Origin: an uncultured Anaerolineae bacterium
GTDB taxonomy: Bacteria > Chloroflexota > Anaerolineae > JACIWP01
DNA: 64,000 nt
Assembly (NCBI GenBank): GCA_938049385.1
Contig: CALIBQ010000025.1
Span: 427 to 64,426 of the forward strand
Direction: 5' to 3'
Positions 36,805 through 36,947 of this stretch are shown here, one piece after another. Below the pieces are notes generated by a model, which worked only from the letters and a program-made list of their open reading frames with translations, did no database searches and was not told the DNA's origin. A program made the position numbers and the translations under genes. Position 1 is the stretch's first letter. Each line of letters opens with the position of its first letter.

Positions 36805-36832
36805 TTGACAAAACGGGCCAGCGTGATATAAT
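36805..36832 (+). promoter_or_regulatory. Near-consensus sigma70 promoter (TTGACA -16- TGaTATAAT, extended -10) directed at the repeat array
   Basis: TTGACA lies at 36805-36810 and TATAAT at 36827-36832, preceded by TGa (an extended -10). This is rare in a 67% GC background. No protein-coding gene follows on the + strand. Confidence 0.6.
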
Positions 36833-36870
36833 AGAATTGTGCCGGCGCACCTTAACAATCAAAAATTCCC

Positions 36871-36947
36871 ATTTTGCGCGGACCCCCTCAGAAAGCTTAA
36901 AAAACCATGTCGCGAAATGGGGGTCCGGAGGGGGTGCGCGCAAAATT
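36871..36947 (+). ncRNA. Long inverted repeat / structured leader downstream of the promoter
   Basis: ATTTTGCGCGGACCCCCTC (36871-36889) pairs with GAGGGGGTGCGCGCAAAAT (36929-36947), forming 19-nt arms with one mismatch. The loop contains GGGGGTCCG, which can alternatively pair with CGGACCCCC of the left arm. Confidence 0.45.

Follow-up and report, generated by a model that had tools for sequence, protein, structure and literature searches.

The window, i.e. the whole stretch of 64,000 nucleotides of Anaerolineae DNA that was analysed, carries a small CRISPR array (Table 1). All four repeats are exact and the spacers are 40–43 nt long. The 3' part of the repeat forms a hairpin followed by AUUACGAC, which is the architecture of Cas6-processed repeats. 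The array is preceded by a leader of about 265 bp that holds both a promoter (P1) and a long inverted repeat (I1). On the left side the array is flanked by three minus-strand genes (greA, lysS and one of family GH57), and on the right side by a gene for a DUF7033/VimE-like deacetylase and a polysaccharide locus. Searches with Pfam, NCBIfam and PADLOC assigned the flanking ORFs to the families GreA, LysS, GH57, VimE-like deacetylase and glycosyltransferases, and no cas or defence genes were found on the scanned flanking ORFs (~32.1–45.9 kb). The array and the deacetylase gene converge, and the GC-rich inverted repeat I4 between them probably terminates transcription from both sides. I4 was left unscored by the terminator scan because its loop has 9 nt. 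Inside the polysaccharide locus, 2.8 kb from the array, there is also an ORF of 1038 aa (window 40222–43338, minus strand). Its synteny is conserved (L001, L013) and it belongs to no Pfam, NCBIfam or PADLOC family, with weak SH3 and RNase H-like matches only.

Table 1. Features of the leader, the array and the adjoining trailer region (window coordinates).
Feature	Position	Strand	Sequence and remarks
cas2 3'-end remnant, probable	36798–36813	+	GGGCCGTTTGACAAAA; carries the −35 hexamer
P1, leader promoter	36805–36832	+	−35 TTGACA (36805–36810), 16-nt spacer, TG (36824–36825), −10 TATAAT (36827–36832)
boxA-like block	36847–36859 (whole block 36847–36870)	+	GCACCTTAACAAT, then nnnAAnTTCC
I1, left arm	36871–36889		ATTTTGCGCGGACCCCCTC; conserved across type III-A leaders with compensatory changes
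I1, inter-arm segment	36890–36927		A-tract motif AGAAAGCTTAAAAAAC (36890–36905), small hairpin CCAT..ATGG (36905–36920), G-rich box GGGGGTCCG (36919–36927)
I1, right arm	36928–36946		GAGGGGGTGCGCGCAAAAT; ends 123–124 nt before the first repeat
TTAGGGCGC..ATC block	36947–36975	+	conserved; degenerate in the window
I2, second leader inverted repeat	arms 36982–36998 and 37045–37061		GTGGGGA ... TCCCCAC
CRISPR array	37070–37415	+	four 37-nt repeats CTCTGAAAACAACGAATGCCCGCAAGGGCATTACGAC at 37070, 37147, 37227 and 37305; degenerate terminal copy 37379–37415
I4, terminator-like GC-rich inverted repeat	37425–37465		A-run before, T-run after

By the homologues of its GreA, the organism belongs with Anaerolineae/Chloroflexota MAGs. 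One protein (P0001) is identical to the GreA of the window. Contigs encoding a 97%-identical GreA have the same leader at the same locus, followed by 2 to 26 repeats, and many of these contigs break inside the array. In the related arrays that were examined there are 163 distinct spacers and nearly all of them differ between strains. L001 and L002 share spacers at the trailer end only; their leader-end spacers differ. Spacer acquisition is polarised at the greA-side end, and the array is real and dynamic. Since acquisition takes place at this end, the promoter and I1 lie in the leader. The plus orientation of the array is based on the degenerate distal repeat and on the leader-end spacer turnover in related strains. 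For three window spacers no exact protospacer matches were found in IMG/VR. The 163 related spacers gave only short chance matches as self-targets in the window, and the leader pattern was not found in viral contigs. A tracrRNA or anti-repeat in the leader was rejected, as the best leader-repeat duplexes (−19.3 and −18.2 kcal/mol) are no stronger than those of shuffled leaders (−22.0 ± 2.9 kcal/mol).

Two of the four window spacers are palindromic (window 37184–37210 and 37354–37381), with the sequences TGCATGCCGGACC/GGTCCGGCATACA and, forming a perfect palindrome, GTAGGGGCGACTCA/TGAGTCGCCCCTAC. A type III-A system has been reported to prefer partially palindromic DNA in spacer uptake (PMC8860593), a preference echoed by these two spacers. 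The palindrome at 37354–37381 also resembles a hairpin kept in the array-less locus L013, and it may be ancestral trailer and not a spacer. Several spacers of L001 and L002, e.g. GTCGGCGCCGGTCATGTCGGCGCCAGTCAGGTCGGCG, are antisense to sequence that encodes pentapeptide repeats (ADLTGADMTGAD). This kind of gene has seemingly been sampled repeatedly by the two arrays; no target was found in the window.

Leader and array are absent in a lineage with 94%-identical GreA (L013–L016), in which the intergenic region upstream of greA measures 281 nt. The trailer end AACCGTTACGACAC and the GTAGGGGCG..CGCCCCTAC hairpin are kept, and the arrangement is best read as loss of the whole leader and array by deletion. 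The divergent greA has a promoter-like site (window 36635–36662, minus strand, TTTACA-16-TATAAT, 11/12) about 140 bp away from P1, and the lineage without the array has conserved this site too. Just beyond it, at about 36676, is the boundary of the CRISPR module.

A genome scan based on the repeat yielded three Anaerolineae MAG loci. In L019, cas1-cas2 is immediately followed by a leader that is near-identical and by the identical repeat. In L019 and L022–L030, csm genes, cas6, cas1 and cas2 are followed by the same leader blocks and the identical repeat. Type III-A loci with homologues of the L019 Cas1 begin with a CARF-HTH gene (Cas_NE0113 + GerE), cas10/csm1, csm2, csm3, csm4 and csm5, and continue with an MJ1674-like gene, one unknown gene, cas6, cas1, cas2, the leader and the array. 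Orphan and cas-linked copies were found in the same metagenomes, namely 3300031749 (L003 and L026), 3300005860 (L033 and L023) and 3300031463 (L010 and L035). Because cas2 is followed by a homologous leader with the identical repeat in such loci and both kinds of copies co-occur in metagenomes, the window array is, judged by these sequence relationships, a second, cas-less (orphan) array of a type III-A system. From the co-occurrence we infer that the genome of the window also carries a csm locus. The orphan array would be served in trans by this csm-cas6-cas1-cas2 locus elsewhere.

Two further contigs carry related repeats. L017 has a long array in which about seven repeat copies contain an insertion of 25–45 nt in the hairpin loop (e.g. 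at 270–315, 590–655, 1085–1130, 1300–1345, 1770–1812 and 2605–2650). The insertion has the form ATGCCCG-TTTATCCCGG...CCGGG-CGAGGGCAT, so that the array comprises two repeat classes. In the Anaerolineales contig L021 (1615–7115, minus strand; related repeat GTAGGAATCAGATGAATGCCCGCGAGGGCATTGCGAC), Csx15, Cas6, a group-II-intron-like reverse transcriptase, Cas1 and Cas2 are encoded beside the array. This is a reverse transcriptase-associated adaptation module, and its leader is not homologous to that of the window.

P1 reaches a score of 12/12 against the sigma-70 consensus. One other site in the 64-kb window, both strands considered, has this score (window 30846, minus strand, TTGACA-17-TATAAT), and the TG extension is present in P1 only. 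The transcription start is predicted near 36839. A reading made from the sequence only had described a near-perfect sigma-70 promoter that is aimed at a region without a plus-strand ORF and belongs to the leader of the array transcript. The analysis agrees with this description: P1 is one of two perfect sites, no convincing plus-strand ORF follows it, and a homologous leader lies upstream of the array in relatives. A small ATG frame starting at 36907 was rejected because a 1-nt indel disrupts it in related loci with L001-type leaders. The −35 and −10 hexamers and the TG of P1 are unchanged in the strains L001–L010 and L033, and 5 of the 16 spacer bases differ. Retained hexamers and TG together with a diverged spacer are the pattern expected of a functional promoter.

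In the cas-adjacent homologues, the corresponding promoter consists of TTGACA, a 17-nt spacer and TATTAT, TATCAT or TATGAT (11/12). Its hexamers sit inside the last twelve codons of cas2 (..GSLTKDPEVYII*). In the orphan copies GGGCnGTTTGACAAAA is retained, its distance to the leader blocks is unchanged, and TGnTATAAT is perfect. The segment that carries the −35 hexamer of P1 corresponds to the ..G S L T K.. codons of the cas-adjacent cas2 copies. It is identical at 15/16 positions to L022 11325–11340 (inside cas2), and the two are placed alike with respect to the leader blocks downstream. The local score of 27 is borderline taken alone (shuffles 16.8 ± 2.3, maximum 29). The segment is probably a remnant of the 3' end of cas2. 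The comparison suggests that the array promoter was optimised after duplication had removed the coding constraint. P1, which would drive the pre-crRNA, may descend from a promoter within the last cas2 codons and, once released from coding constraint, may have drifted to full consensus.

From about +9 the predicted transcript reads GCACCUUAACAAU, and the boxA-like block as a whole covers about +9 to +32. Within this block, ACCTTAACAAT is invariant in 8/8 distinct versions of the close leader family and the adjacent positions vary. GCACCTTAACAAT is identical to the E. coli rrn boxA (GCTCTTTAACAAT) at 11/13 positions. On either strand it is the sole rrn boxA match with at most two mismatches in the window (0.38 expected window-wide), and no rRNA genes were found in the 64 kb. 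In E. coli, the location of the rrn boxA region TGCTCTTTAACAAT ~95–145 nt upstream of 16S was confirmed, with a median of seven places per genome. The block was not found in the distant I1-bearing leaders. NusB and NusE are recruited by boxA elements, and through such recruitment the untranslated array transcript might escape Rho termination. Compared with the boxA consensus GYTCTTTAANA (PMC5725501), GCACCTTAACA agrees at 9/11 positions with the departures T3A and T5C, and this consensus may not be that of the Chloroflexota host. Because of these two departures, a boxA function of GCACCTTAACAAT is graded as plausible only and is proposed with reserve. According to secondary accounts of Stringer et al. 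2020 (PMC7862264, bioRxiv 10.64898/2026.07.09.737519), boxA upstream of natural CRISPR arrays promotes full-length array transcription.

The arms of I1 pair at 18/19 positions, with one G.G mismatch, and are separated by 38 nt. The inverted repeat with 19-bp arms that had been noticed in the sequence is thus real. The window contains no other copies of the arms (0.04 matches expected by chance), as would be seen for a MITE or REP element. I1 is found in every homologous leader. Furthermore, it is present in type III-A leaders with different repeats and a Cas1 that is only 46–50% identical (L036/L037, L040–L043, L044 and L045–L048). Conservation and covariation in homologous loci, which had been named as a check on the structure, are both observed in this comparison, which covers about 13 distinct versions of the leader, all from a single phylum. 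Four positions of the arms covary, with the pairs G:C changing to T:A (twice independently), C:G to A:T, T:A to A:T, and G:C to C:G, with G.G and C.C occurring as intermediates. Changes in the length of the C-run go along with changes in that of the G-run. In an alignment of the arms only, both partners have changed in 5/12 pairs. This alignment has a covariation score of 0.238 compared with 0.093 ± 0.031 for shuffled alignments (0/500), and all slid registers score far lower. The mismatches of the arms are G.G, C.C, A.C and A.G, and the G-U type is represented by one cell only. Covariation of this kind is equally expected of an RNA stem or a cruciform and separates none of the readings of I1 that are weighed below.

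Two elements are located between I1 and the first repeat. The TTAGGGCGC..ATC block is homologous, as called by eye, to part of the L044 promoter downstream of I1, namely its spacer and −10 region. The arms of I2 hold their positions (about −85 and −12) in L001, L034, L028 and L029. Insertions of 10–11 nt are located upstream of the I2 left arm in L022 and inside the I2 loop in L028. I2 is not recognisable in the distant lineages.

The distance between the end of the I1 right arm and the first repeat is 122–128 nt in the window, L001, L034, L029, L036, L037, L040, L045, L046 and L044. L022 and L028, each with one insertion of 10–11 nt, have 134 nt instead. The sequence that fills this distance has a between-lineage identity of 0.55–0.59, which is the random level (0.57 for shuffled sequence), and upstream of I1 the spacing is variable, with 6 to 114 nt between the cas2 stop and I1 depending on the lineage. 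The motif I1 is conserved, and its distance to the first repeat is fixed and helically phased.

The order of I1 and promoter is not constant. In the window lineage P1 is upstream of I1. In L044, the one lineage with a strong predicted promoter downstream of I1, this promoter (TTGACA-17-TATCAT, 11/12) is the only strong one. Because the best promoter of L044 is downstream, I1 is probably not transcribed with the array there. No promoter site of at least 9/12 was found in L036 and L040.

The orientation of the inter-arm segment differs as well. The conserved motif AGAAAG(C/T)TTAAAAAAC, which is followed by the small hairpin, is on the opposite strand in L040 (5057–5153) and L045 (5364–5440) compared with the window, L001 and L028. 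For L040 and L045 the reverse complement gives local scores of 26 and 29, respectively (shuffle maximum 16–20, 0/500), and the forward strand scores at chance. The reverse complement of the L045 inter-arm segment equals L001 at 16/16 positions. The segment of L036 is probably in the window orientation. All copies within the window's own lineage share the window orientation and there is no sign of active switching. An RNA with a meaningful loop sequence would not survive such an inversion; a double-stranded site within a symmetric element would. Taken together, the locked spacing, the promoter order, the inter-arm inversion and the substitution pattern point to a role of I1 at the DNA level.

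Most likely, I1 is a DNA motif of the leader that helps Cas1-Cas2 to find the first repeat. It would act as double-stranded DNA with two inverted half-sites and a bendable A-tract centre, about 12 helical turns from the first repeat. A two-fold symmetric Cas1-Cas2 integrase, probably together with a DNA-bending host protein, would locate the leader-proximal repeat via I1. More specifically, I1 and its A-tract centre may be an orientation-independent integration enhancer for the type III-A Cas1-Cas2 that is folded back by the bending protein; we offer this more detailed version tentatively. There is no match with at most one mismatch to the E. coli-type IHF consensus (WATCAANNNNTTR) in 36800–37070, and the bending proteins of Chloroflexota may prefer another sequence. 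If the proposal is true, I1 represents the first architecture of leader recognition to be defined in type III systems, and it explains the continued spacer acquisition by a cas-less array elsewhere in the genome. The explanation as a whole (an orphan type III-A leader in which P1 drives the pre-crRNA, with a boxA-like block and with I1 as a DNA integration element) is, in our judgement, just on the probable side.

The best-surviving alternative assigns I1 to the RNA. The boxA-like block and the I1 hairpin would form a nut- or rrn-like signal, or the hairpin would stabilise the 5' end of the pre-crRNA, and the effect would be processive, Rho-resistant transcription or protection of the transcript. 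In the window lineage a consensus promoter precedes I1, which occupies +32 to +108 relative to this promoter and adjoins the boxA-like block, and boxA followed by a hairpin resembles the order in lambda nut. The stem is very stable (predicted −34 to −47 kcal/mol) and its pairs covary. Additionally, boxA has been reported in CRISPR leaders, again according to the secondary accounts of Stringer et al. 2020 (PMC7862264, bioRxiv 10.64898/2026.07.09.737519). However, an RNA element gives no reason for a locked distance to the first repeat across randomised sequence, and the opposite strand of the loop motif in L040 and L045 would alter the RNA sequence entirely. I1 is upstream of the promoter in L044, and in L036 it begins 6 nt after the cas2 stop without a boxA-like block. 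Furthermore, the substitutions in the arms are not of the G-U type expected of RNA helices. We regard an RNA-level role of I1 as unlikely.

Alternatively, the arms could be half-sites for a dimeric regulator, which would make I1 an operator or an upstream activating site. A candidate is the CARF-HTH protein (Cas_NE0113 + GerE), since a regulator of this CARF-LuxR/GerE type is encoded at the start of the csm locus in L022–L024. In L044, I1 ends 8 bp before the −35 hexamer, which is a typical activator position. A protein bound at I1 in the window, downstream of P1, could be a roadblock. Half-sites that co-evolve with a locus-encoded protein would also mimic covariation. The arms of I1 (14–19 bp, 31–46 bp apart) are, to our knowledge, unlike the known LuxR/GerE boxes, however. 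The regulator gene is seen in one lineage only, with short flanks in the other loci, and transcriptional control leaves the constant distance to the first repeat unexplained. A regulatory site is a distinctly poor candidate for these reasons.

Template switching in quasi-palindromes can yield both homogenisation of the arms and inversion of the loop, and both are observed in I1. The inverted repeat might thus be functionless, hitch-hiking with the leader and symmetric through mutation and not through selection. Against this stand the fixed distance that is kept across randomised leaders, in systems with a Cas1 of only 46–50% identity, and the retention of I1 in the orphan copy. Such a neutral origin is very improbable.

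The sequence-only reading had proposed two mutually exclusive structures, reminiscent of an attenuator, a riboswitch or a processing site. The internal GGGGGTCCG is indeed complementary to CGGACCCCC (36879–36887) within the left arm, so the alternative pairing exists in the window. The box is neither conserved nor compensated in homologues, where it reads GGGGCTCCG, GAGGGTCCG, GGGGCTTGAG or GGGGTATGG and does not follow the change of the left arm from CGGACC to CGCACC. The leader RNA is strongly structured by prediction (36839–37070, −96.2 kcal/mol, z = −4.2), and the full I1 hairpin is ~17–32 kcal/mol more stable than any alternative of the left arm. With the right arm blocked, the best folds of the left arm have −11 to −21 kcal/mol and their shapes differ between homologues. 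The I1 stem is followed by AAAAUUUGAG, and the terminator scan found no plus-strand terminator-like site between promoter and array. Rfam gave no hit at gathering score in the whole window. At E ≤ 10, only chance-level matches were obtained in 36700–37500 and none of them overlaps the promoter, the boxA-like block or I1. These matches fall in the array and terminator region, except for a microRNA on the opposite strand at 36980–37063 (E = 6.5). Because the box is not conserved, the alternative folds are weaker and both a plus-strand terminator and an Rfam match are missing, an attenuator or riboswitch is hardly credible, and the reading as a processing site is likewise unsupported. The answer to the original question is largely ordinary, namely the promoter of a CRISPR leader.

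With known attenuators and riboswitches the window leader has in common a structured 5' leader and a possible alternative pairing, but it is devoid of a terminator, a conserved alternative structure and an Rfam family. The resemblance to the boxA antitermination of rrn operons and CRISPR arrays consists of GCACCTTAACAAT at about +9, close to the E. coli rrn boxA and invariant among close homologues. It is limited by the two departures from GYTCTTTAANA and by the distant I1-bearing leaders without the block. The block is a possible boxA in a Chloroflexota CRISPR leader. Promoter, boxA-like sequence and hairpin occur in the same order as in lambda nut. I1, however, is a 76-nt element with an interior of 38 nt, compared with the 15-nt boxB of lambda, and the comparative evidence favours a DNA role. 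We know of no N-like protein for the window system.

CRISPR leaders are A/T-richer regions upstream of the first repeat that contain the array promoter and integration signals. The window segment resembles them in that it adjoins the first repeat on the side of spacer turnover, sends a consensus promoter into the array and is homologous to the leader after cas1-cas2 in loci with the same repeat. It differs in being an orphan copy between greA and the deacetylase gene, and in a −35 region that is seemingly derived from cas2 coding sequence. The locus thus offers a probable case of an array promoter that arose inside the coding sequence of cas2 and was optimised after duplication.

For the reading of I1 as a leader DNA motif used by Cas1-Cas2, the comparison with type I systems is relevant. 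In a type I-F leader, the two faces of the Cas2 dimer bind one inverted repeat each, and ~150 bp of the leader are folded by IHF (bioRxiv 10.1101/2023.05.26.542337). I1 resembles the elements of type I-F and I-E leaders in its inverted repeat, its A/T-rich centre and its fixed distance to the first repeat, and the length changes come in steps of about 10 bp. In contrast, the window system is type III-A and the arms have 14–19 bp rather than 10 bp. I1 is ~125–200 bp from the repeat and is not accompanied by an E. coli-type IHF consensus. [quoted passage not shown] The choice of the leader-proximal repeat by type III systems is poorly understood, and I1 is a concrete candidate signal: it has a fixed distance to the repeat, tolerates inversion and is retained by an orphan array that is still turning over spacers. 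The CRISPR leader is a known kind of element; the conserved, invertible, distance-locked I1 found with type III-A seems to make these leaders a variant not described before.
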